Notes: generated by a model from the sequence alone, not told the origin. 52,485 nt of DNA from a virus (IMGVR_UViG_3300033145_000528:1-52485); one strand, 5' to 3'. Shown: positions 4,203 to 52,071, counted from the stretch's first letter. Program-made: numbers and translations.

Positions 4203-4888
4203 ACCCTAAAAGAGAACGTCAACGCCCATTCCATGCCTTCGAGGTATATCGTGATCTTGGATATGGACGCACATATAGGGCGGTAGCACGGCAGGTTGAT
4301 GCGTCCCCTGGTACTATATCTCATTGGGCAAAGGTTTACAAATGGGACGAGCGTATCAAAGAGAATGACATTATTGTGCAGCGGAAAAGGGATGCTGGGG
4401 CTATAATGCCTATTGACGATCCAGTCGCCAAGCGTCTTACAGATATAATGAACAAAATGGAGGCGATTATTGATAGTTGTTTCGTGAAAGAGCCTGGTGG
4501 TGATTTCTCGCTTAAAGATAGTCTTAAAATCACGAATGCAGAAGATTTGACCAAGATTATCGCCGAATACCGTAAATTCCTCGAAACCTACCATAAATTT
4601 GTTGCAGAATATATGCCTGATAAAAAAGGCAAAGACCGTTCTACAAAGATTGATAAACTAAACGTGTTTATGGGTGATTTGTCCCAGCAAGAGCGTATTG
4701 ATGTTATGAAGGGGATTGCAAATGAAAATGCCTCTGGAAGAAATAAGCAACCTGAGGGAAGAGTTTCGGAAGCAGATTATACAGAAGTACTTGAACGAGG
4801 GAATGAAGACAGACCTGGACGTACAGGAGTTTCTGGCAGCCCTGCAAATAGCGGTAGTAGGGACGAGGAGACTATGCGGGAATCCTGA
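4184..4888 (+). CDS. terS: Terminase small subunit (HTH)
   Basis: N-terminal AFEVYRDLG.GRTYRAVA..ISHWAKVYKWDER HTH followed by helical region; lies directly before TerL. Confidence 0.75.
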   Translation: MPRYKLDPKRERQRPFHAFEVYRDLGYGRTYRAVARQVDASPGTISHWAKVYKWDERIKENDIIVQRKRDAGAIMPIDDPVAKRLTDIMNKMEAIIDSCFVKEPGGDFSLKDSLKITNAEDLTKIIAEYRKFLETYHKFVAEYMPDKKGKDRSTKIDKLNVFMGDLSQQERIDVMKGIANENASGRNKQPEGRVSEADYTEVLERGNEDRPGRTGVSGSPANSGSRDEETMRES

Positions 4889-7262
4889 CCACGTATCACA
4901 GTTCGGGGTTGTATCCGACATACTCAGAGAAGCGGTGACATATTACGTTATATGGGCGTGCAGGTCAGGTAGTAAGACATTTCTGTTTGGCGGGCTGGAT
5001 TCGTGGGTAAAGAGTTGTAGTCGCCACCATTACGAGACCCGCTTATTAGGTGGGAGTAAGGATCAATCATTATTGTCTTACAAAGCCATGAGTAGGTTTC
5101 GTGACGAAACTGACCCGTTGAATACTCGCTTGGATGGGGATATTCTACAATCACGGGCAACATTCCTAAACAAATCGGAAGTGTCAATCCTTACTGCAAG
5201 TATGACTGCGGTACGTGGGCCACATCCTCAATCACTTAAACTTGATGAAGTAGATGAGATAGATGAGGAAGTATATGAAGCCGCCCTCTCGCAACCAATG
5301 GAAAATTTTGGTTACAAAGACTCACTGGGTATGTTTTCCACGAATCACAACGTCATGGGGCAAATGGATAAAGCGCTTGTAAACGCAAAAGAGCATGGCC
5401 ACGGTATCTACAAATACTGCATTTGGGAGGTCATGGCATCGTGCAGGGATTATAACTGCTCTACGTGTCCCCTTTCCGGGATATGTCCTGGCAAGCAAAT
5501 GAAAGAAGCGGATGGTTATTATTCTGTGGGGGCGTTTATTAAGAAACTCGAAACACTCTCCTATTCCATGTTGGCACGGGATTGGTTATGTATAAAAGTA
5601 GGTCTCGGGGACACGGTGTATGAGCAGGAATGGGATGAGGATACAAATCTATGTAGCGTAGCATTGCAACAAGCCCCTGTGATATTGAGTGTTGACTTTG
5701 GTGGTGTATCGCCGTTTTCTGTAGGTGTATGGCAGGAAGCACCAGATAGACTTGGCGGAAAAGGTACGTGGATACGGGTTACCGAATTGTATATGTGTTC
5801 TGAAGGGACGTATGAAGGGTCTGATAAAAAGAAGGAAACATCTGTTACCAATGCCCAGGTCATCGCACGTGCATTAAAAGCCCCCTGGGCTAAATTAGTA
5901 ACCGAAATAATACCCGACAATTCACGTCCAGACAGCATTCAAGAGTGGAGAGAGGCATTTCCACATGCTAAAATGACTATTGTGAAAAAAGATATAGATG
6001 GCATGATAGACCGTGTTAAATCGGCTCTGAAGCCTATTACTGGCACGCCTAAGATGTTGATTAATCGTATCTGTATGCACTGGCGGCAAGAGGTGCTGAT
6101 GTATGCTGTAAAGAATGATAAGCCAGTAGATAAAAACAATCACTGTTATGACGATCAAACTGAGATACTAACTGAATATGGGTGGAAACTATTTAAGGAT
6201 TTGGATAGGCAGGAAAGGGTAGCGTCCCTTGACAATGAGCGCAATCTTATATGGGCGGAGCCATCGGAGTATGTTGATTATGATTATAATGGTGATATGC
6301 TCGAATATTCTAATCGGCATTTCGGATTCTGTGTAACACCTAATCATAATATGCTTGTCGTATCACAATTCGATGCAAAGAAAACTAAGCAGTATAATCC
6401 ACGATTTGTACCTATTGAGGATATTGGGAATGCGGTGGGAAAAGAGAATAAGGGTAAGCGTAATAGAGCCTCGGTATGGTGGATACCTATGGTATGTAAT
6501 CCCCCTGAAGTTAAAGCCGAAAAGCTGATTGATGGGTATTTTCTCGGATTCTGGTTGGCAGAGGGATGTAAGTCTATTAGCGGTTTTGGGGCTAAATATG
6601 TCCATATTGACAACACTAATATACAATTCTTAGAAAAGGCTACTGCTTCTGTAGGGCATTCTCAGAAACCATACAGGACGGATTCGGGCTGTTATAGGGT
6701 GAGCATTCGTAGTGATGAGTTGTATGATATGCTTCCGAAACAGCGTAGTTGGGAAAAGCGGATTCCAAGATGGTTCATGGAAAACGCATCCACAGCGCAG
6801 TTAAAGCGATTGTATCTTGGTATGATGGATGGGGATGGATGTTGGCAGAGTGCGAGTAGCCACTATAATACTTGTAGTTACGGGTTAGCATCTGACTTTC
6901 AGGAACTTCTAATTAGAATTGGTTTGTATGGAACACTCAGAAAAATAGGTGATGCTGGTACTATAAGTTATATAAGGGGAAGAAAAGTAATATCGAAGCA
7001 TCCGCAATATAGGGTAATTATAAATATCAATAACTCAATCTACAAAGCTATACGTGGTGAGAAACTTAAACGGATTAAGTACTCTGGGAAAATCTATTGT
7101 GTAGTTGTAGAGCCATATCATACTATCATGGTGAGGCGTAATGGTAGTACGATGTGGTGCGGGCAGACAATGGATGAGACTGGTTATTTTGCACTGGCTA
7201 AGTTAGGTGAGGAAGAGGGTGTGTATGTTGGGACTACTAAACATGATGTTATGCCAAGATAG
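4722..7262 (+). CDS. terL: Terminase large subunit containing an intein
   Basis: Walker A-like ACRSGSKT, Walker B LKLDEVDE, nuclease SVDFG and DKNNH|TMD; located between TerS and portal. RBS AAGGGG precedes ATG 4722. Confidence 0.88.
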   Translation: MKMPLEEISNLREEFRKQIIQKYLNEGMKTDLDVQEFLAALQIAVVGTRRLCGNPDHVSQFGVVSDILREAVTYYVIWACRSGSKTFLFGGLDSWVKSCSRHHYETRLLGGSKDQSLLSYKAMSRFRDETDPLNTRLDGDILQSRATFLNKSEVSILTASMTAVRGPHPQSLKLDEVDEIDEEVYEAALSQPMENFGYKDSLGMFSTNHNVMGQMDKALVNAKEHGHGIYKYCIWEVMASCRDYNCSTCPLSGICPGKQMKEADGYYSVGAFIKKLETLSYSMLARDWLCIKVGLGDTVYEQEWDEDTNLCSVALQQAPVILSVDFGGVSPFSVGVWQEAPDRLGGKGTWIRVTELYMCSEGTYEGSDKKKETSVTNAQVIARALKAPWAKLVTEIIPDNSRPDSIQEWREAFPHAKMTIVKKDIDGMIDRVKSALKPITGTPKMLINRICMHWRQEVLMYAVKNDKPVDKNNHCYDDQTEILTEYGWKLFKDLDRQERVASLDNERNLIWAEPSEYVDYDYNGDMLEYSNRHFGFCVTPNHNMLVVSQFDAKKTKQYNPRFVPIEDIGNAVGKENKGKRNRASVWWIPMVCNPPEVKAEKLIDGYFLGFWLAEGCKSISGFGAKYVHIDNTNIQFLEKATASVGHSQKPYRTDSGCYRVSIRSDELYDMLPKQRSWEKRIPRWFMENASTAQLKRLYLGMMDGDGCWQSASSHYNTCSYGLASDFQELLIRIGLYGTLRKIGDAGTISYIRGRKVISKHPQYRVIININNSIYKAIRGEKLKRIKYSGKIYCVVVEPYHTIMVRRNGSTMWCGQTMDETGYFALAKLGEEEGVYVGTTKHDVMPR
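6144..7166 (+). mobile_element. Intein (341 aa) with LAGLIDADG homing endonuclease in TerL
   Basis: Begins CYDDQTEILTEYGWK; block B VTPNHNM; LAGLIDADG-like FLGFWLAEG and YLGMMDGDG; ends YCVVVEPYHTIMVRRNG..WCGQ before a Thr. Confidence 0.92.
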
Positions 7263-7346: not shown

Positions 7347-8126
7347 ATGCTTGAAATAAACAAAATATATCAGGGTGATTGTTTGGAATTAATGCCCGAG
7401 ATACCAGATAAAAGCATTGACATGATACTTGCTGATGTACCATATGGAACTACTGCCTGTAAGTGGGATACCATTATTCCCTTAGAACCAATGTGGGAAC
7501 AATTAAAGAGAGTTATTAAACTGAATGGGGCTATTGTAATGACAGCAAGCCAGCCTTTTACAACTACATTAATAAGTTCAAATATGAAAATGTTTAAGTA
7601 TGAGTGGATATGGATGAAAAGTCGTGCCGTAGGTTTTCCAAATGCTAAAAATAAACCAATGAATAAACACGAAAATGTGCTTATTTTTAGTAAGGGCGAT
7701 TGTGCAAATCGTTGCAAATTAAGAATGAATTATTATCCGCAGGAATTAATAGAAATTAATAAACAAGTAAATGGTATCAAGGTATGTAAAGGCGATGTTG
7801 ATGGACATGGTTTTGCCCGTCCTTCTCATAAAAAGAAACGAATACAGCAATATACAAATTTTCCAAATTCTATTTTGTCAATAGCTAATGTAGGGAATAC
7901 AGTTCACCCCACTCAAAAACCAGTTGCTCTTTTTGAATATCTGATTAAAACTTATACAAACGAAGGTGATACAGTTTTGGATTTTGTGATAGGCTCAGGC
8001 ACAACCGCAGTAGCCTGTATCCGTACAAATCGAAACTTCATCGGCATGGAATTAGACAAGAACTACTATGATATAGCGTGTAAACGTGTTGAGCAGGAAC
8101 TGGCACAAACAAAACTAAAACTCTAA
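7347..8126 (+). CDS. DNA N6-adenine/N4-cytosine methyltransferase (beta class)
   Basis: GDCLE, catalytic DVPY, HPTQKP, SAM-binding DFVIGSGTT. Confidence 0.92.
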   Translation: MLEINKIYQGDCLELMPEIPDKSIDMILADVPYGTTACKWDTIIPLEPMWEQLKRVIKLNGAIVMTASQPFTTTLISSNMKMFKYEWIWMKSRAVGFPNAKNKPMNKHENVLIFSKGDCANRCKLRMNYYPQELIEINKQVNGIKVCKGDVDGHGFARPSHKKKRIQQYTNFPNSILSIANVGNTVHPTQKPVALFEYLIKTYTNEGDTVLDFVIGSGTTAVACIRTNRNFIGMELDKNYYDIACKRVEQELAQTKLKL

Positions 8127-12227: not shown

Positions 12228-14645
12228 ATGTTAAGAATGACTGATATACCAAAGAAGAGACGAATATTGACACCCAAAGAAGAGGCTATCAAAAATGAGG
12301 CGCAGTCCAAGAAAACATTAGTCACTATGAGCAGTTTGCCCAAAAAACCACGAGGTAGAGTACCGTTAAATCAACAGGTGTTCGTAGTGCCCACGCCATC
12401 CAAGATCCTCAGCATGAGTGATTTGACTAAACGCAGAAAACTCTTACGACATATAGAAAGACAAGCAAGAAAGAACCGTGCAAATACACATAGTTATGGT
12501 GCGGTTACCATGGGTCCAAAAATATTTGCCGATTATGTTTCTAATGGCGCATGGAAAGGCAGAAGATGTTTTATTGTTGGGGGAGGTCCAAGTATTAAAA
12601 ATCTGGACTTGAGTTTATTGAAAAGCGAGTTAACAATCGGCATTAACAGGGCATATGAGTTATTAGATCCGAGTATACTGTTTGGAGTGGATGGTCAGAT
12701 GTGGGGATGGGTAGAACAAGGCAAATTTGGTGAGGAATCCAAGCGTAAATTTAGGGAATATAAGGGATACAAAGTCTGGATGGCGTTGCATAAGATGTTC
12801 CCATCGGACTTTTATCTTATAGAGGTGGATGACAATGCAGGATATAGGATAGGGACAACTAACAGGTTAGCATTCAAGAACAACGGCGGATACGGAGCAA
12901 TTAATTTGGCAGCAGCGTTAGGAGCCAATCCCATATATTTACTTGGCTATGATATGCGGGGTACCAAGCAGGGTAAACAGAAATGGTGGCATGACGGGTA
13001 TCCAGTCGATTATGGCGAGGATGTGTATAAAGGATATATTAAAGAAATAAACAATTTCGCGCCAATATTGAGAAAAGCAGGGTTCGAGGTTGTTAATCTT
13101 AACCCTAAATCAGCTTTGAAATGTTTTACATTTGGTAAATATAGTGAAGTTGTGAAGAAGAAACCCGTTATACCAGTGGATGCTATACAATCAATGGAAA
13201 GACCCGGCACGATTACAGCTATTACACCCACAGGGGATAGACCATTGGCATTCGCACTTTGTAAACACTGGATGGAAATGCAAACACAGAGGCCTGACCA
13301 ATGGATAGTTGTGGACGACGGGAAGGTGCCATTGAAGCCATCCCCCATGATGGACTATATACGGCGAGTACCAACATCACGAGATCCAAAGCATACATTA
13401 AGTGTTAATTTAAAGACCGCTTTGCCTCATATTAAGGGGAGTAAAGTACTGATTATGGAGGATGACGAGTATTATGCACCAAACTACATAGAAGCTATGG
13501 CAAAAGAGCTGGACACCTCTGAAGTGGTTGGGATAATGCAGGCAAAATATTACCATTTGCCGTCAGGCGGGTATGTGCAGATTGGCAACACAGCACATGC
13601 TTCCCTTGCCCAGACTGGGTTTAAAAACTCGTTCGTGCCGAAGTTACGTCAAATAATCGACCATGACAAGAATATCGACTATATAGATATGCAAATGTGG
13701 TATAAGTCTATGGCGGAGCATAAAGCCCATTTGTTTTCGGATAAGCAGAAATCCTTGTACGTCGGGATAAAAGGAATGCCAGGCAGGAAAGGTATAGGAC
13801 AAGGACACAACCCAAAATTGTATGGTAAGCACATTGACAGCGATAGAAAAGTGTTGAGAGAATGGATGCCAAATGATTATAAGGTGTATTTGGATGTGCT
13901 TAACGGCAAACTTAATGATACGAATTGTGCCACATACTTTCCGCAAATAACTGGGATAACAGTTTGCTGCAATACCAAAGACCTCATACAGAGGTCGTAT
14001 GAGTCGATAAGAAAATTTCATCCAGATATGCCCATAATCATAGTTGACGGGTCTAACACAAACAACCCATGCGCAAAATATGTAATGAGCTTAAAATCCG
14101 ATATTACGACCGTGATACAAACCAGATATAACATAGGGCATGGAAGGGGCATGTGCTTGGGTATAGATCACGCCAGAACACCATATGCGTTGATATTTGA
14201 TAGTGATATTGAATTGTTAAAGTCCCCTGTAAATGATATGATGGCTGAGATGGAGCCCGATACATTCGGGATAGGCTACATAGAGCACACTGATTTTGAT
14301 GGATATGGCATCGGAGCCAGGGTAGGTCATATAGGGGAGGATATGCCCTACCTACATCCATATTTCCAATTGATTTGCATCGCTAGTTATCGTAAATATC
14401 ATCCATATGTACATCATGGGGCACCATGTTATCTTACCATGCTCGATATTTACAAGCGGGGACTGTCGGATAAGGTGTTGAAAAGTTTTCCCGGGTTGGG
14501 CCACAGCGCTGGAAAAGATTATGGATGGGAGGGTAAACCAAGAAAGTATGTACGCCACGATGTGAGAGGGACAAGAAATGAACGTAAGAAACGTGGATTG
14601 CAGGAAATAGAGGGAAATTGGGTAAAAAATAAAGGATTGATATGA
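12228..14645 (+). CDS. Three-domain glycosyltransferase: Maf/DUF115-like domain plus two GT-A (GT2-like) domains
   Basis: CFIVGGGPSI..IGINRAY..AINLAAALGANPIYLLGYDM; ITPTGDRP..IVVDDG..IMEDDEYY; ITVCCN..IVDGS..GHGRG..IFDSD. Confidence 0.85.
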   Translation: MLRMTDIPKKRRILTPKEEAIKNEAQSKKTLVTMSSLPKKPRGRVPLNQQVFVVPTPSKILSMSDLTKRRKLLRHIERQARKNRANTHSYGAVTMGPKIFADYVSNGAWKGRRCFIVGGGPSIKNLDLSLLKSELTIGINRAYELLDPSILFGVDGQMWGWVEQGKFGEESKRKFREYKGYKVWMALHKMFPSDFYLIEVDDNAGYRIGTTNRLAFKNNGGYGAINLAAALGANPIYLLGYDMRGTKQGKQKWWHDGYPVDYGEDVYKGYIKEINNFAPILRKAGFEVVNLNPKSALKCFTFGKYSEVVKKKPVIPVDAIQSMERPGTITAITPTGDRPLAFALCKHWMEMQTQRPDQWIVVDDGKVPLKPSPMMDYIRRVPTSRDPKHTLSVNLKTALPHIKGSKVLIMEDDEYYAPNYIEAMAKELDTSEVVGIMQAKYYHLPSGGYVQIGNTAHASLAQTGFKNSFVPKLRQIIDHDKNIDYIDMQMWYKSMAEHKAHLFSDKQKSLYVGIKGMPGRKGIGQGHNPKLYGKHIDSDRKVLREWMPNDYKVYLDVLNGKLNDTNCATYFPQITGITVCCNTKDLIQRSYESIRKFHPDMPIIIVDGSNTNNPCAKYVMSLKSDITTVIQTRYNIGHGRGMCLGIDHARTPYALIFDSDIELLKSPVNDMMAEMEPDTFGIGYIEHTDFDGYGIGARVGHIGEDMPYLHPYFQLICIASYRKYHPYVHHGAPCYLTMLDIYKRGLSDKVLKSFPGLGHSAGKDYGWEGKPRKYVRHDVRGTRNERKKRGLQEIEGNWVKNKGLI

Positions 14646-22654: not shown

Positions 22655-25250
22655 TGTAGGGTCGGTACAAGGATATTTAAAGCTCAATACTACTGGATGG
22701 ACAAGTAGTATGGGGAGAGCTAATGCCTCACTGCAATCCTTATCTCGCTCATTCACACGATTCGGGGCAATGGCAGTTGGCTCTATCACACTGCTTACCC
22801 GCGAATACGGTAAATTTGACAAGGCTATACGGCATGCCACCAGTGTTAGTGAGCTAAGTGAGGCACAATTCAAAACAATGTCCAATATGGCGCTGGATGC
22901 CTCCATTAAATGGAATAAGGCTGCTACCGATACCGCACAGGCATTTTATTTTCTTGGGTCGGCGGGATTAACAGCTACCGAGCAAATGCAGGCATTTAAT
23001 GACACCATTATGCTATCACGAGCTATGGGAAGTGAATTGTCCATGACTGTCGAGGGATTGGTGGATATTGTTAGAGCATTCGGGTTGGAATTTGAGAATA
23101 CGGGTCATATTGCAGATATACTTGCCAAAACAATAGTAAGCTCCAATCAAAATTTCATGGACTTGGATAAGGCATTATCATATGCAGGCGCTACGGCTGC
23201 CTTTACCAATAACACGCTTGCCGAAACAACCGCTATGCTGGGTGTTATGGCTAACGCAGGCATAAAAGGCAGTATGGCGGGTACTGTGTTAAGGCGTGCT
23301 ATAGCTAACCTTATATCCCCTACTACAGAAATGCGGGATTTGATATATCGGCTGGGTTTGCACATATATGATACAACTGGGCAGATGAAGCCATTCATAG
23401 AAATTATAGGGGAAATAAGTGACAAAATGGCGGGCACAACCGAAGAGTTCCGCAATATGGTGTTTAAAGTGTTGTTTGGGGTTAGAGCTATTGGTGGGCA
23501 GATAGCACTGTTTAATTATGGCTCGAGAGCATTAAGACGGTATGCAGATGAGATAGAGAATGCTGGTGGGACTACGGAGCGTGTGGCAAAGAAACAAATG
23601 TTGGCATTCACGGAGCAATTAGGTCAATTATATAGGATAGCACAAAAACTGGCTATTATGCTCGGAGATACACTTGCATCATCATTGCTGAAAGTGATAG
23701 ACAGGATTAAATATAATATCAAGGCATTTGAGGATTATGTTAAAGTGAACACTAAAATAGTAGCGGAATCATTGAAGTGGGTAACGGTTTTGGGAGTATT
23801 ATCTTTGACAATCCCTCCACTGCTGCTTGTTATCACGGGGCTCACTAACCAATTCTTATTACTCACAAAAGCCATTGCTGGATCGGCATTAGCATTGGTA
23901 ACCAATCCCATTACGTGGCTTGTAGCGGCATTATATACATTAAGGGCTACTTTAATGAGTGATTTTTGGAAACAAGCATTGGAAAGTAAAATAATACCAT
24001 TCTTTGAAGACTTTGGCGATATAGGAGTACAAACTATTACCCAAATCATGTGGGAATTTTCATTATTACCGCAGTTTATTGGTAAAGTATTGAATAGAGT
24101 AAGTGATTACATAAAAGGTTCTGCAAATCAGGTTAAATTATATATAAAAGGCATAACGCATCTGGATATAGAAAGTCTGATACAGGCGGCTGGTATGAAT
24201 AAATATTTGCGTGAATTACTCTCAGGAGAACCAAAAGGGTTTATGGATGTGTTATTTGGTGGTGACGAGGAAGCACGCAAAGCATCATATCAAAGCTATG
24301 TGAATGACCTGAAAAACGTAGGAAAGGAGATAGTCTGGACAGGCAAAGACATTGTCAGCAACTTCGCAGAGACGATGGAGAAGGCAATCACGGAGGATAT
24401 TGGTAACTTGAGTAAATTATTGGCGGGACTTGCCAAGCATCTTCCTGCGCCATTTATGGCAGCTATAGAGGAGATAATAGAAGCAGTTGATGAACTTGGG
24501 AATATATACCGTATATTTATGGAAAAGCCGCCTGTATTGCCAGGCCTTGGAATACCTCCCGCACCAAGTGTTACGCCAGAGTTAACAGCCGCCTATGAAG
24601 AATATAAAGCACTTCTCATAGAGCAAATGAAGAAAGTGCAAGCCTCTATGAAACAACCATCTATATGGGCGGAAAGATGGGAAGAGGGGCTAAGAAAAGC
24701 GATATTTAATTTACGGAATTGGGAAGATGTATTTGCTGACGTGAATATGGGGATAAAAACTGGGTGGTCAGACACCATAAGCAGTTTTCTCAACGATACT
24801 TACATAGGAGCAAGGACATTTGAGAACCTTATAACCAATATGTTCACGACAGTATTACATAAGTTCAACGATTTTGTAGCAGAGGTGCTGGCAAGCGATT
24901 TGTGGTATGCTTTATTTGGTGGCGGTAAAACGATGGAGTTTGGTACTGCCACATTTCTCTTTGGGGGCAAAGTAGCCAAGAGCAGGCGGGATCCAGGTTG
25001 GTTACTTGACCTTCAGCGGACAATACCATATACTGCCCCATCGAAAGACTATTATACCCCGGAGCTATCCACTATGGGGTCACAAAAAGCTGCTGTAGGT
25101 AGTACGGTTATCAACATCACTAACAAAGGCACCCCAGTTACTTTGAAAGAAACCAGCCGTGTATTTGATGGTAGACGGTGGGTGATTAATGCGGTTATGA
25201 GTGAGCTTAATACAAATCCAGCATTTGCTAAGACGGTCAGAGGGGGATAA
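22647..25250 (+). CDS. Tape measure protein (TP901-type)
   Basis: AGLTA, MANAGIKGSMAGT.LR, G.MKPF; long helical protein; GTG start likely at 22647. Confidence 0.92.
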   Translation: MFNVGSVQGYLKLNTTGWTSSMGRANASLQSLSRSFTRFGAMAVGSITLLTREYGKFDKAIRHATSVSELSEAQFKTMSNMALDASIKWNKAATDTAQAFYFLGSAGLTATEQMQAFNDTIMLSRAMGSELSMTVEGLVDIVRAFGLEFENTGHIADILAKTIVSSNQNFMDLDKALSYAGATAAFTNNTLAETTAMLGVMANAGIKGSMAGTVLRRAIANLISPTTEMRDLIYRLGLHIYDTTGQMKPFIEIIGEISDKMAGTTEEFRNMVFKVLFGVRAIGGQIALFNYGSRALRRYADEIENAGGTTERVAKKQMLAFTEQLGQLYRIAQKLAIMLGDTLASSLLKVIDRIKYNIKAFEDYVKVNTKIVAESLKWVTVLGVLSLTIPPLLLVITGLTNQFLLLTKAIAGSALALVTNPITWLVAALYTLRATLMSDFWKQALESKIIPFFEDFGDIGVQTITQIMWEFSLLPQFIGKVLNRVSDYIKGSANQVKLYIKGITHLDIESLIQAAGMNKYLRELLSGEPKGFMDVLFGGDEEARKASYQSYVNDLKNVGKEIVWTGKDIVSNFAETMEKAITEDIGNLSKLLAGLAKHLPAPFMAAIEEIIEAVDELGNIYRIFMEKPPVLPGLGIPPAPSVTPELTAAYEEYKALLIEQMKKVQASMKQPSIWAERWEEGLRKAIFNLRNWEDVFADVNMGIKTGWSDTISSFLNDTYIGARTFENLITNMFTTVLHKFNDFVAEVLASDLWYALFGGGKTMEFGTATFLFGGKVAKSRRDPGWLLDLQRTIPYTAPSKDYYTPELSTMGSQKAAVGSTVINITNKGTPVTLKETSRVFDGRRWVINAVMSELNTNPAFAKTVRGG

Positions 25251-35238: not shown

Positions 35239-35679
35239 ATGATACCTAAAATGATAGTCATACATCACAGTTTAACTGCCGACAACCACACAGTCTCATG
35301 GGACAATATAAGAGATTACCATGTAAACGTTAAAGGCTGGAATGACATCGGATACCATTATGGCATCGAGCTTATTGAAGATAGGTATGAAATATTAGTA
35401 GGGCGTATGATGAATGAACAAGGCGCCCATGTCAGGTCTCATAATAACAACACACTCGGCATATGCTTTATTGGGGATTATGACCATTCAGAAGTCCCAC
35501 CAGCCATGTGGAGAAAAGGGTTGCGTCTTGTGGCAAGCCTATGTTATATTCTTAAAATAGAAGCCAGTAATGTTTATGGTCATAGGGAATTTAATAATTA
35601 TAAAACGTGTCCGGGCAGAAAATTTAACATGATTGGTTTCCGTGCACAATTAACACAAAGCATCAGAGAGTTTTCATAA
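35239..35679 (+). CDS. Endolysin, N-acetylmuramoyl-L-alanine amidase (Amidase_2)
   Basis: [35 protein letters not shown]...KTCPG. Confidence 0.95.
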
Positions 35680-35704
35680 ACTCATTAATCACAGGAGGCA
35701 TCAC

Positions 35705-35977
35705 ATGAATTGGGAAACTATAGTGGGCGTAATAACCCATCCCGTAACCGTAACCATAATCACCGCCATAGCCGGAGTATCCTTCAGGGGTTTCGTCAAG
35801 TATAAGAAGGCATTCAAAGCCTTCATAGACATCCCCAGAGCCGTGATAAACTCCCGCAGGGACGGATCAGCTGGCGGCAAACATATAACGGAGGCTGAAT
35901 ATACCCGCATCGGCAAAGAAATTGTAGAATTCATCGAAGAACTGCCACCCTTACTTAAGAAAGGGGCTCATTTATGA
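35705..35977 (+). CDS. Membrane protein (possible holin)
   Basis: N-terminal TM helix, basic stretch; RBS AGGAGG; follows the endolysin. Confidence 0.55.
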   Translation: MNWETIVGVITHPVTVTIITAIAGVSFRGFVKYKKAFKAFIDIPRAVINSRRDGSAGGKHITEAEYTRIGKEIVEFIEELPPLLKKGAHL

Positions 35978-36276
35978 AAATCAACCTCTTAACCCCCATA
36001 ACCGACCTCGACAAAACCCCCATACCAGAAGCTGACGGCAAGCCCATGACACTACGCTCCGTAATTTGCGGCGCACTCGTATCCCAAAAACAGGGAGATA
36101 ACCCACCCGGAATAGAAAAAGTCCGCCGGTACAACCTTGCTACACGGGTATTTGCTTCCGATACAATAGACTTGGGCATCGACGACCTAAAATTAATCCG
36201 TGACCTCGTGGCAGACAGCTATGTAACACTGGTAGTAGGTCAGGTATGGGGTATTCTCGACCCGCCAACATCATAA
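35974..36276 (+). CDS. Hypothetical protein
   Basis: ATGA coupling; EK..RY.LA..V.....DL...DL.LI..LV pattern. Confidence 0.65.
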   Translation: MKINLLTPITDLDKTPIPEADGKPMTLRSVICGALVSQKQGDNPPGIEKVRRYNLATRVFASDTIDLGIDDLKLIRDLVADSYVTLVVGQVWGILDPPTS

Positions 36277-36594
36277 CCGCCCGTAGACAGGACTGCCCAT
36301 TGACACTAAAGATGTAGACGGGGTAAAACACCTAAATTGCACACTACCTAATACATCAACACCACGCCCGGGGTCTAACCCACCTCGGGCTGCTTAATTT
36401 CCCATTCGACCCACCCAATTCCCTGCAACCCACCAACTTACCGCAAAACCACATTATTAATTAATAGTAATACTACCATACCCATTTATTGAAAACTGAA
36501 CACCGCATTTAAGTACCACCATACCATCACTATATTAGAAAGTCATAATAACCCAATAAACGCACGGGGTAGGGGACTGCCCTACGGCTCACGA

Positions 36595-36622
36595 TGTGCG
36601 CATAATAGGCATTATGTAAACA
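36595..36622 (+). other. dif-like XerCD recombination site
   Basis: TGTGCGCATAA-TAGGCA-TTATGTAAACA: left arm 10/11 to the E. coli dif XerC arm (GGTGCGCATAA), right arm 10/11 to the B. subtilis dif arm (TTATGTAAACT), 6-bp centre, non-coding location. Confidence 0.8.
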
Positions 36623-36878
36623 AGTATAAACAATACGACTATTGACGCCTCTTCCCCATTGCCAGTATATTACTATAATTCTATATTCTTACTTATTCTT
36701 ATGTGTAGTGTTGCAAAATGCGTCACTTATATTATAAAAACAGTATAGACCCGCAGTTAAATATCCTGTTAGCGATCCGCCAAAACAGGGGTTGTCTGAC
36801 AACGTTATGCGGGTATTGTGATATTGTAATGGGTAACGGCTTATTAGTATTATTTTTGTAAATAATTGACATTAATTA

Positions 36879-36916
36879 AAAAAAGTACTTGACAATGATG
36901 TATTGTATGTTATATT
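36879..36916 (+). promoter_or_regulatory. Early promoter (sigma70-type)
   Basis: AAAAAAGTAC-TTGACA (36889-36894), 16-bp spacer, TGnTATATT (-10 at 36911-36916). Confidence 0.7.
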
Positions 36917-37044
36917 GTATAACGGGCTATAGGAATTGGGTATTTGGTATAACAATTAGTAAGGGGGGAGGTACATGGATCACGGCAGCAGCAAGGGAAA
37001 TGGACGGGGGCTTATAAAACTAATATTAACAAGGGGGCGGTACA

Positions 37045-37284
37045 ATGTATATCGGAAAACACATTGGGTGCAATGTCAAAGCACTTAACAAGACTGCGTT
37101 ATGTAAGTATAGCCATGATACTTGGTTGTTCAGCAATAACGTGAAGCTGGCTGATTTCGAAAAAGTATGTGTAGAACCAGGGTCACAAATCGTTCTTAAC
37201 GGCATTGACTGGGGTGGCGATACTATACCGTCTTGGAAGATTATCTTTCGTGATGATAATGGTGAATTAGTGGTATATGAATAA
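37045..37284 (+). CDS. Early hypothetical protein
   Basis: RBS AAGGGGG; first gene of the small-gene array. Confidence 0.6.
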   Translation: MYIGKHIGCNVKALNKTALCKYSHDTWLFSNNVKLADFEKVCVEPGSQIVLNGIDWGGDTIPSWKIIFRDDNGELVVYE

Positions 37285-37310
37285 CATGAAACCACGAAAG
37301 GAGCAGTACA

Positions 37311-37586
37311 ATGAAACAGTACGAACAATTTAAATCAGCATTAGCTTTCCAAAAACATCTGCAAGCGGGAAAATATATACCCGATGAGGTAATTGTTGGC
37401 GGTATTTTATTCACTATGGATAATTATGACGATAGCGGAAAGGAAATATCATACAGCAATATAAAACATCAGAAACAAATGTTAATCATTACGGAAAATC
37501 GTTACAGCGTTAAGGGAACATCCGACGCAATAGTGGAGATTGACGAATTGTTTTCAAAACGAGTTGGTTTTCCGTATGTTGAATAA
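37311..37586 (+). CDS. Early hypothetical protein
   Basis: RBS AAGGAG within a repeated leader. Confidence 0.65.
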   Translation: MKQYEQFKSALAFQKHLQAGKYIPDEVIVGGILFTMDNYDDSGKEISYSNIKHQKQMLIITENRYSVKGTSDAIVEIDELFSKRVGFPYVE

Positions 37587-37603
37587 AACTACGAAAGGAT
37601 AAT

Positions 37604-37804
37604 ATGCAAGCAATCGGTAAATTAACAGTTTTTAACAAAGACTATAGAGTTCTTGTCAGACAGACAAATACTAATCGCTATTATAAGTTAGCAGCGGGAA
37701 AGATTGGAAAGTCTATGTTTTTTGACGAAGCAGACGGACTTCATTTTGAGGAAAACCCTGTGCTTTTTGCAAAATTTCTTAAAGGTGAAGTTGTTAAGAT
37801 ATGA
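37604..37804 (+). CDS. Early hypothetical protein
   Basis: RBS AAGGA within a repeated leader. Confidence 0.6.
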   Translation: MQAIGKLTVFNKDYRVLVRQTNTNRYYKLAAGKIGKSMFFDEADGLHFEENPVLFAKFLKGEVVKI

Positions 37805-37816
37805 AAGGAAAGTACA

Positions 37817-38029
37817 ATGACAGGCAAACACACAAAAACACCGTACTCGCATGGAAAACTGGTTGAGGCGTTGGAACTTATAACACGGGGTAGTCTGGAT
37901 GAAATGAAACTGTGGCTACTGGTGCATGAACCATCACAGCCAAATGAACACGAACCATTAGTAAATTGTAATAGAGCCGTGTTAAATGCATTAATTGCTA
38001 AACGAACACTTGTTGAGGTTGGAAAATAA
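37817..38029 (+). CDS. Early hypothetical protein, partial paralog of 38053-38322
   Basis: MTGKHTKTPYSHGKLVEALE. Confidence 0.6.
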   Translation: MTGKHTKTPYSHGKLVEALELITRGSLDEMKLWLLVHEPSQPNEHEPLVNCNRAVLNALIAKRTLVEVGK

Positions 38030-49851: not shown

Positions 49852-49988
49852 GCGGGCTGTGGCGGAATGGTAGACGCAATTTGGGCTAATGATGGAGTGC
49901 GACTATCTGGTGCATTATGGAAAGTCAATGAGCCAAGGTTTGAGTCCTTATAGTCTCTGTCGTACAGGTTCGACTCCTGTCAGCTCGC
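49852..49988 (+). ncRNA. tRNA-like RNA with an enlarged central region
   Basis: Acceptor GCGGGCTG/CAGCTCGC, D-arm GCG-GAATGGTAGA-CGC, T-arm ACAGG-TTCGACT-CCTGT; about 85 nt between the D and T arms; no clear anticodon and no CCA. Confidence 0.75.
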
Positions 49989-50148: not shown

Positions 50149-50694
50149 ATGAAAGATGATGTTGTTGAATTAATAAGTGAAACGTATTGCGATGCTGGTT
50201 ATGTTGTAAGGGATGAGATAAAACGAAGTCATTTTGAGGACATGAAGGTAATTCCAATATCAATTAGTAATAAGGAGACTAAAGAATTTGCGGATAAACT
50301 TTCAAAAGGATTAGATGTCCAAGAGGGGCATACAATTCAAATAGTCTCTGCGTACACAGTTGGTGGTGATTATATAGGCTCTGTCAAAACAGCAAAGTTT
50401 CTATGTGAGAAGCTTGGTATACATCCTGAATTAGCAAAGCCTTCTGATTGTGTCTGCTCAATTGGGTTTTCTCGAAAAGATGGTAAATGGTATGGCTGGA
50501 GTCATCGAGCTATTTACGGTTTTAAGGTTGGCGATAAAGTTAAGAAAGGCGATTGTTGTGCCTCCTCAGGTTGGACGGATGAATATTTACACGAACATCC
50601 TGAAGAAGATTTATCATTGCCAGTTGGGTTTGTTGCAAAAAGCATATTTGATGCAAAGAGGATGGCTATTGCTTTTGCTGAATCTGTTAGTTAG
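50149..50694 (+). CDS. Hypothetical phage protein
   Basis: SIGFS....KWYGWSHRAIYGF..G..DAKRMA.AFAESVS. Confidence 0.75.
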   Translation: MKDDVVELISETYCDAGYVVRDEIKRSHFEDMKVIPISISNKETKEFADKLSKGLDVQEGHTIQIVSAYTVGGDYIGSVKTAKFLCEKLGIHPELAKPSDCVCSIGFSRKDGKWYGWSHRAIYGFKVGDKVKKGDCCASSGWTDEYLHEHPEEDLSLPVGFVAKSIFDAKRMAIAFAESVS

Positions 50695-51422: not shown

Positions 51423-51492
51423 TGATTAGGAGTGTGTTTAAGAGAAGCTGCTCCAAGAACCGAAAGATTTAATGAAAATGGGGGGAGGCATT

Positions 51493-52071
51493 ATGAGACC
51501 TTGCAAAGAACATGACGAAGTTGGTTGCCCCATGACCCGTATCAATCGTGTAAATGGTGAGGGACCGATACCGTGCCATATTATGCTTATTGGGGAAGCG
51601 CCTGGCAAGAATGAGGATAAGAAAGGGAAGCCGTTTGTTGGGAAGTCTGGTAGCGAACTTACGCATCTGTATCTTGGCAGATGTGCGAGAATTAATAGGA
51701 GCAATGTATTCATCACTAATCTCGTGCGCTGTAGAACAAATGACAAGGATAGAGACCCTACGGAGAAAGAAATTAAAGCGTGTAGCCAATTGTTACTTGC
51801 TGAGTTGGCAACTATAAAGCCACGTTTTATTGGACTGATAGGACGCATATCAACTCGATGGATGTTGGGCAATGATATACGAATGGAAAAGGTACACGGA
51901 TTTGGCTATAGTAATCTCATTTTTCCTTATTGCGATGCTCTTGTCATGCCCCTCTACCATCCAGCCTATGGTCTGCACAATACGGCTATGATGAGGCATA
52001 TTATGGAAGATTGGACGAGGTTTGGGAAGATGGTTAGGGGGGACAAGAGTGTAATATGGAAACCAAAGTAG
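51493..52071 (+). CDS. Uracil-DNA glycosylase, family 4
   Basis: V.GEG, MLIGEAPG.NED..G.PFVG.SG, FITN.VRCR...RDP...EI.AC, LYHPAY. Confidence 0.92.
   Translation: MRPCKEHDEVGCPMTRINRVNGEGPIPCHIMLIGEAPGKNEDKKGKPFVGKSGSELTHLYLGRCARINRSNVFITNLVRCRTNDKDRDPTEKEIKACSQLLLAELATIKPRFIGLIGRISTRWMLGNDIRMEKVHGFGYSNLIFPYCDALVMPLYHPAYGLHNTAMMRHIMEDWTRFGKMVRGDKSVIWKPK

Follow-up and report, generated by a model that had tools for sequence, protein, structure and literature searches.

A conserved dif-like site with inward-pointing G-rich flanks as a candidate substrate of host XerCD in tailed phages without a detected integrase

Introduction

The lox/Cre system of phage P1 cyclises terminally redundant DNA after injection and also resolves dimers of the plasmid prophage. 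The Xer sites cer (ColE1) and psi (pSC101) work independently of FtsK and need an accessory sequence of about 180 bp on the XerC side, bound by PepA with either ArgR or ArcA; the centre of cer is 8 bp long.

In the 161 proteobacterial dif sites described by Carnoy & Roten, the XerD arm is more conserved than the XerC arm and the inner parts are the most conserved, while the centre is constant within a species and variable between species. As set out in the Castillo review, KOPS are 8-bp GGGNAGGG motifs, about one per 13 kb, which converge on dif and serve to load FtsK, guiding it to XerCD-dif for the activation of XerD. The use of host Xer by filamentous viruses, double-jelly-roll viruses and microviruses that integrate at dif is established (PMC12715192), and according to Kono et al., integrating phages carry pseudo-dif sites in which the XerD arm is degenerate and the centre is longer. 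In full-text searches of the open literature, PMC12715192 and PMC3094311 among it, we found no report of dif-like or Xer sites in tailed phages. A dif-type Xer site with KOPS-like flanks in tailed phages without an integrase, as we propose here, would therefore appear to be previously undescribed among the open literature.

The phage genome and its gene content

The window, by which we mean the whole stretch of 52,485 bp that was analysed, is a complete virus record whose ends share a 114-bp repeat located away from the Xer-type site. All plausible genes lie on the + strand. The structural genes include a large terminase with a LAGLIDADG interruption, a tape-measure protein, and tail and fibre proteins, which together with the endolysin [Table 1] identify the virus as a tailed phage. 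For replication, the genome carries a family-A DNA polymerase (in three ORFs), a D5-type primase-helicase, an exonuclease and a Sak4-like ATPase; a 201-aa ORF has matches in two families, RusA-like resolvases and polymerase sliding clamps, and an ERCC4/HhH nuclease is encoded as well.

Six-frame searches of the window (E<=1, controls positive) found neither a tyrosine recombinase (PF00589) nor a serine recombinase (PF00239) in this complete record, and the original prediction was right that this phage has no integrase. Likewise, no HTH_3 repressor domain, XafT-like DUF3653 (PF12375) or FtsK-like domain (PF01580) was found in the window by six-frame searches with positive controls. Partition genes were not found in the window, in which many small early proteins are uncharacterised; nearly all of the 20 small early ORFs scanned (37-42 kb and 44-47 kb) were without a family match. 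With genes on one strand, its own DNA polymerase and primase-helicase, and no HTH_3 repressor, the genome looks virulent from its sequence.

Several other features were recorded in the window. The large terminase (848 aa; 4716-7262) has an inserted LAGLIDADG-type domain and weak matches to proteins in which such insertions are common, and the insertion is probably an intein. The polymerase ORFs (51472-52071, 390-1637 and 2208-2954) match successive parts of one PHROG profile; the split spans the ends of the record, and small ORFs lie between the parts (DUF4326 at 133-390, and another at 1850-2215). At 50149-50694, strong similarity to the type I Thoeris inhibitor Tad6 (PF25188, E 5.7e-56) marks an anti-defence gene. 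An N6/N4 DNA methylase is found at 7347-8126, an 805-aa protein with glycosyltransferase-2 and sialyltransferase-like matches at 12228-14645 within the structural module, and a tRNA-Ser gene (anticodon TGA) at 49903-49988 among the early/replication genes.

The 28-bp site at the late/early boundary

The site lies in a gap that was delimited as the stretch without coding-strand ORFs [Table 1]. Near-consensus XerC and XerD arms, a non-canonical centre and a position at the boundary of late and early genes had been described for it originally, and both the sequence and the position bear this description out. When up to 3 mismatches were allowed, the site gave one match in the window, and 0/100 shuffles reached one. 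With the core CGCATAA-N6-TTATGT, chosen a priori, there was again a single match at <=1 mismatch (0.09 expected). A position weight matrix (PWM) made from the family sites described below scored the window site at 36.3 bits, and the next best match was its own reverse strand at 14.4 bits.

The surroundings are regulatory in appearance, with 13 promoter-like sites between 35900 and 37400 against 4.7 expected. A structured RNA spanning the module was considered and rejected, as there was no Rfam match, the fold z-score was -1.0, and the consensus fold consisted only of a 6-bp palindrome with 0 covarying pairs.

Table 1. Coordinates of the features at and around the Xer-type site (positions in the window)
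Feature	Position	Strand	Basis or remark
Amidase_2 endolysin, end of the late module	35239..35679	+	PF01510, E 5.4e-17
Non-coding gap, last late (lysis-region) ORF to first small early ORF	36277..36717	.	441 bp
Terminator-like hairpin followed by a T-run, after the late genes	36366..36390	+	consensus scan only
KOPS-like octamer GGGTAGGG, pointing at the XerC arm, 20 bp upstream	36567..36574	+	sequence
XerC/XerD-type site, 28 bp: TGTGCGCATAA-TAGGCA-TTATGTAAACA	36595..36622	+	sequence, unique, family-conserved
XerC arm TGTGCGCATAA	36595-36605	+	11 bp
Centre TAGGCA	36606-36611	+	6 bp
XerD arm TTATGTAAACA	36612-36622	+	11 bp
Sigma-70-like promoter TTGACG-18-TATATT, 20 bp past the XerD arm	36642..36671	+	consensus scan
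Second G-rich octamer GGGAAGAG, 1 mismatch to GGGNAGGG, pointing at the XerD arm	36649..36656	-	weak
Stronger sigma-70-like promoter	36889-36916		consensus scan

Conservation of the site among relatives

The DNA from 35500 to 38000 had no match among named phages. When viral contigs were scanned for TGCGCATAA-N6-TTATGTAAA, 21 loci were found, among which there are 17 distinct sequences; no excess over chance is claimed for them. Two of these loci (G003 and G011) were true relatives of the window phage. For most of its length, G003 (54,291 bp, estimated complete, 54% GC) shows synteny with the window, with 63% identity in the capsid, 51% in the terminase and 44-51% in the polymerase. Its site, TGTGCGCATAA-CTACTA-TTATGTAAACC, is oriented against the genes and occupies the corresponding long gap, which separates the last late ORF from the early promoters. 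G011, a 62%-complete member of the family, has the site ACTGCGCATAA-TAACCA-TTATGTAAACT downstream of the fibre gene in direct orientation. The closest relative among the viral contigs, G006, is a fragment that ends in the fibre gene and does not contain the gap; PF00589 was absent from both G003 and G006. A scan of metagenomes with the fibre alignment added 52 loci. In nearly all of the best 28 (L120-L147), further tail/lysis genes are syntenic as well, which places these loci in the family; the weakest share the fibre domain only.

The site was present in 14/14 family loci that reach the gap past the last late gene (the window, G003, G011, L121, L122, L123, L127, L128, L131, L136, L138, L139, L141 and L146), which represent 12 distinct lineages with GC contents of 37-59%; with such a span, the hosts must differ widely, and they are probably uncultivated. 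Conservation in relatives had been named at the outset as a check on the site, and it is found in every informative locus. The family sites from metagenomes (L121-L146, 11 loci) score 33-38 bits by the PWM, and the naive chance expectation, by simple arithmetic, for a match with <=2/18 mismatches in 350 kb of metagenome loci is about 0.015. The family loci without a site (L124, L129, L130, L135, L142, L144 and G006) all stop too early, and 8 fibre-only loci with >=3 kb downstream, which are not of the family, have no site. Of the other searches, one with the primase-helicase among viral contigs gave 1 distant locus. G009 was set aside as an informative relative, as it has only structural genes in common and no site, and relatives chosen by the amidase (70 loci, 533 kb) had no dif-like site and turned out to be unrelated to the window phage.

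There is one copy of the site per genome, and the layout of 11 + 6 + 11 is kept in all 12 lineages. The distance to the site from the last late ORF is 150-1829 bp (11 lineages), and from the site to the next coding-strand ORF it is 74-698 bp (in the 8 that reach one). Among the 11 distinct site sequences, positions 3, 5, 8-11, 18-25 and 27 are invariant, positions 7, 17 and 26 change once each, and the outer XerC arm is variable; across the family, the XerD arm is thus nearly invariant and the XerC arm looser. The centre differs in each of the 11 sites (TAGGCA, CTACTA, CACATA, CACTTA, TGAACA, CATATA, GATATA, CCTACC, TAACCA, ACTATA and CGGTCA). The order of conservation in these columns (XerD arm, then XerC arm, then centre) is that of dif.

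Between the family lineages, proteins are 40-75% identical, no homology is detectable in the early genes just past the site, and within 1.2 kb of surroundings only the 28-mer and a few short patches are common. The 28-mer has been kept while its flanks have diverged, which is indicative of a selected island of conservation, and with such a site at the equivalent place in all 14 loci, a chance match is effectively refuted. In our reading, the 28-mer is probably a host XerC/XerD substrate maintained by selection in recombinase-less tailed phages of about 50-57 kb. Among the best 120 of 295 clusters of capsid homologues, many of the longest contigs are 50-57 kb, two that are labelled as MAGs look like binned phage contigs, and no integrated relative was seen, the longest contigs being <=57,426 bp. 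No capsid match was found among 72,556 plasmid records (PLSDB).

G-rich octamers around the site

The flanking octamers were counted within 60 bp on each side of the site in the 12 lineages, in XerC-to-XerD orientation, which gave 23 flanks because the upstream flank of L128 is missing where its contig stops. Inward-pointing GGGNAGGG-like octamers with <=1 mismatch occur on the top strand of 7/11 upstream flanks (exact in 4: the window, L121, L131 and L138) and on the bottom strand of 9/12 downstream flanks (exact in 1), a total of 16/23 against about 2 expected, with 5/23 exact. Outward-pointing octamers were found in 0/11 upstream and 2/12 downstream flanks, that is, in 2/23 at <=1 mismatch, with 0 exact on either side (0/23). 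The background in random 60-bp segments of the same loci was 0.091 (<=1 mismatch) and 0.0068 (exact) per flank and strand. The binomial P for 16/23 inward flanks is about 1e-12 (background 0.085), a value that overstates independence because the lineages are related and the flanks are partly homologous. In the exact copies, the fourth base is variable (T, G, C), as in KOPS. None of 19 viral loci with dif-like sites outside the family has the inward motif (0/19), which indicates that the motif belongs to the module of this family and not to dif-like sites generally.

The octamer upstream of the XerC arm had been noted as KOPS-like and possibly due to chance. For the window alone this caution stands, since GGGNAGGG occurs 4 times, all on the + strand, against 6.1 expected, with no genome-wide excess or KOPS polarity; in the relatives, the caution gives way, as the place and direction of the octamer are conserved. 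We take the flanking G-rich motif to be a putative form of KOPS. The octamer at 36649-36656 overlaps the predicted early promoter.

Other short elements were seen near the site. The 15-mer GGGGTATGGGACTCC recurs about 110-130 bp beyond the XerD arm in six loci (L121, L123, L127, L128, L136 and L141), and the G-rich element GGGGTAGGGGACTGCC of the window (36566-36581), which can form a 6-bp hairpin with CCCTAC, resembles it. In L127, L136, L131 and L139, 2-3 copies of the DnaA-box-like repeat TTATCAACA lie about 10-320 bp from the site, mostly with a spacing of 11 bp (22 bp in L139), and the window has none; these copies may be an origin or an iteron array. The contigs of L128 and L136 stop about 10-90 bp from the site, which may reflect either an assembly break at a sequence common to co-occurring strains or a physical end.

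Arms, centres and hints of the host

Compared with the E. coli dif sequence as printed in Kono et al., the window site agrees at 10/11 positions of the XerC arm, 8/11 of the XerD arm and 2/6 of the centre; with B. subtilis dif, also as given by Kono et al., its XerD arm agrees at 10/11. Both arms are identical (22/22) to those of a site in a Pseudomonadota MAG, at a locus of 74% GC. This site is present as a single copy between ORFs in the 3.8-Mb assembly and is probably the dif of that genome. The site had also been put forward as a help in identifying the host, and here it disappoints, as arms identical to those of the window were found in that one 74%-GC genome only and the XerD-arm type CATAA-N6-TTATGTAAAC is rare, occurring in 4/401 sampled Pseudomonadota genomes, the one phylum sampled. 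The dif sites of delta-proteobacteria and Bacillus are of the XerD-arm type of the window (Carnoy & Roten; Kono et al.), which is a host hint only. A homologue of the endolysin is found on a 241-kb Thermodesulfobacteriota MAG contig, again a weak host hint. Matches of the primase-helicase to named phages, all <40% identity, were discarded as uninformative about the host, and the polymerase and capsid had no close match among named phages, which is equally uninformative.

Two of the centres are shared between distant or unrelated phages. TAACCA is common to L138 and G011, which are distant lineages of the family with opposite site orientation and otherwise share just 113 bp of DNA at 71% identity. 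TAGGCA is common to the window and G010 (L172), an unrelated phage with no protein in common with the window; the G010 record (38.9 kb, a complete tailed phage) has end repeats and encodes a portal and TerL but no PF00589, and its site ACGTCGCATAA-TAGGCA-TTATGTAAACT (23295-23322) is located in a gap of 300 bp that directly follows a small-terminase-like ORF. Such sharing would be unexpected if centres drift freely, the chance of a shared centre for the family pair L138/G011 being about 0.02-0.13 (an estimate from 66 pairs). The shared centres could reflect a common outside partner or an exchange of modules between phages. G005 (60,023 bp; L003, L009, L013 and L015), a viral record that is estimated to be complete and lacks PF00589, carries the intergenic, dif-like site TTTGCGCATAA-CCGTTA-TTATGTAAAGT, of which four contigs have identical copies and which lacks flanking KOPS-like motifs. 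The occurrence of Xer-type sites in phages without an integrase may extend beyond the window family.

Discussion

In form, the phage site is like the chromosomal dif of E. coli and V. cholerae, with its 11 + 6 + 11 layout, near-consensus arms of which the XerD arm is best conserved, and GGGNAGGG-like motifs that point inward from both sides. It is unlike chromosomal dif in that it lies on a 52-kb virus genome instead of a chromosome terminus, its centre is TAGGCA instead of TGTATA, its G-rich motifs are about 30-60 bp from the site as against one KOPS per ~13 kb (Castillo review), and there is no genome-wide polarity. With cer and psi, it has in common an Xer core on a small circular replicon without a recombinase of its own, a non-dif centre, and a proposed role in converting multimers to monomers, whereas its 6-bp centre and KOPS-like flanks set it apart. 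No long conserved flank of the cer/psi type was seen in the family, only short motifs, and host-specific accessory sequences could escape alignment. The IMEX (CTXphi, VGJphi, TLCphi, the gonococcal island, dif-type double-jelly-roll phages and gokushovirus proviruses) also combine the lack of an integrase with a dif-like site for host XerCD; they are, however, non-tailed viruses or islands found integrated at dif, while the window phage is tailed and virulent-looking, with no integrated copy found. In contrast to pseudo-dif sites, the family sites are best conserved in the XerD arm and have a centre of exactly 6 bp. The functional analogy that we favour is P1 loxP/Cre, likewise a single recombination site on a tailed-phage genome, with the difference that P1 encodes Cre, partition and immunity genes; none of these was detected in the window phage, which would depend wholly on host enzymes.

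That the site is a real Xer site with host XerCD as its enzyme appears highly probable from the sequence comparisons; host XerCD is taken as the enzyme because the phage has neither a recombinase nor a known Xer activator. A chance match, or a recently captured and functionless scrap of a host terminus, is hardly credible: the single site per genome would suit it, but 14/14 informative loci keep the site even though their proteins are 40-75% identical and their flanking DNA is unalignable. We also consider it very unlikely that the palindromic 28-mer is no Xer substrate but an operator, origin or packaging element that only resembles dif and to which some protein of phage or host binds. Its regulatory setting beside early promoters, the 11-bp-spaced TTATCAACA repeats adjoining it in some relatives and the simple palindrome of the inner arms are in keeping with such an element; both arms, however, equal those of a probable bacterial dif with their non-palindromic outer halves included, conservation follows the dif signature from XerD arm through XerC arm to centre, the 6-bp spacing is found in 12/12 lineages, and the XerD arm is invariant though the loci range over 37-59% GC. 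Conceivably, the arms bind XerCD while the G-rich flanks are not FtsK signals and provide Chi-like end protection or promoter/leader elements, any recombination then being FtsK-independent in the manner of cer/psi. This is quite unlikely in our view, although the motif is specific to the family (0/19 other viral dif-like loci), a -10-like hexamer directly precedes it in the alignment of several lineages, the contigs of two relatives end about 10-90 bp from the site, KOPS polarity is absent genome-wide, and the 3' ends of the motifs face the site, which would be the orientation needed by a Chi-like signal if DNA ends arise there. Against it are the five exact GGGNAGGG copies with a variable fourth base, as in KOPS, the convergent motifs on both sides, as around dif, the absence of a conserved ORF after the motif and the want of support for a structured RNA.

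A further alternative is that the site is an attP with which a tailed 'IMEX' inserts, perhaps reversibly, at a host dif with a matching 6-bp centre by means of host XerCD. We regard this as unlikely, yet deserving of serious attention, since the phage has no integrase and there are precedents in filamentous viruses, double-jelly-roll viruses, microviruses and a 57-kb gonococcal island (PMC12715192; Castillo review). Moreover, dif centres are species-specific (Carnoy & Roten), so that lineage-specific phage centres could mirror those of the hosts; non-canonical centres are shared by distant or unrelated phages (TAACCA in L138/G011; TAGGCA in the window/G010), and 5/11 distinct centres are dif-like (CACATA, CATATA, GATATA, ACTATA and CACTTA). 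The other 6/11, however, are unlike the dif centres tabulated by Carnoy & Roten. No integrated relative was found, contigs being <=57.4 kb among the best 120 of 295 capsid clusters, the early-side flanks of L138, L131, L127 and L146 are without bacterial housekeeping genes, and the gene layout is virulent-looking with no repressor found. In addition, insertion by way of a full dif-like attP with a perfect XerD arm would leave tandem dif sites, and FtsK-XerCD would be expected to cut the element out at every division. In the stable IMEX that are known, the XerD arm is degenerate or the centre longer (Kono et al.; Castillo review); a perfect XerD arm with a 6-bp centre is the opposite, and hence any integration would be expected to be unstable.

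The role that we favour over docking at host dif is resolution or cyclisation among phage copies: host FtsK-XerCD may well recombine copies of the phage with each other, resolving multimers, unlinking or cyclising them, although we hold this reading only tentatively. The original proposal was that the phage borrows host Xer either to integrate or to resolve circular multimers; that it probably borrows host XerCD is strongly supported by the conservation of the site in 14/14 loci, and between the two uses the evidence leans toward phage-with-phage recombination with some room left for integration. In such a reaction, XerC and XerD would bind the arms, and FtsK, loaded on the flanking motifs, would meet the bound complex and switch on XerD. 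Two copies of the phage site would then recombine, the pair being provided by a circular dimer or multimer, by catenated daughter circles, or by both ends of a terminally redundant genome, and the product would be unit-length circular phage DNA. The binding of XerCD, the involvement of FtsK and the pair of sites that reacts are what we infer from the sequence. The perfect XerD arm, 6-bp centre and KOPS-like flanks together imply an FtsK-activated, complete reaction. Diverse centres are expected if a match is needed between two phage copies only, and the orientation of the module relative to the genes, inverted in 8 lineages and direct in 4, fits a reaction that is independent of gene direction. 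With its dif form and inward KOPS-type octamers, the module looks, as far as sequence can tell, like a miniature chromosome terminus.

Several points speak against recombination between phage copies. A lytic phage packages from concatemers, so that the gain from resolving multimers is not evident, and FtsK acts at the division septum, which is a better fit to a replicon carried through divisions than to a lytic burst; neither partition genes nor relatives in a plasmid state were found. The shared centres hint at an outside partner such as host dif, and in the window the second octamer is weak and overlaps a promoter, with no genome-wide KOPS polarity.

More speculatively, and somewhat doubtful as it stands, the dif-type site with inward KOPS could be a portable miniature terminus that plugs the chromosome of this widespread, uncultivated and virulent-looking phage family into the FtsK-XerCD division machinery of the host. 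If true, the phages would either pass through host divisions in an unrecognised episomal carrier state or dock at host dif reversibly and under the control of FtsK. Docking, if true, would make these phages the first tailed-phage IMEX, with lineage centres that track the dif centres of their hosts, as TAGGCA and TAACCA hint. In either case, host chromosome-segregation enzymes would act on tailed-phage DNA, which would bear on circularisation, on persistence in slow-growing hosts and on the calling of phages as 'virulent' from sequence. For a phage group known only from metagenomes, the arms and the centre together would offer a simple, testable handle on host range.
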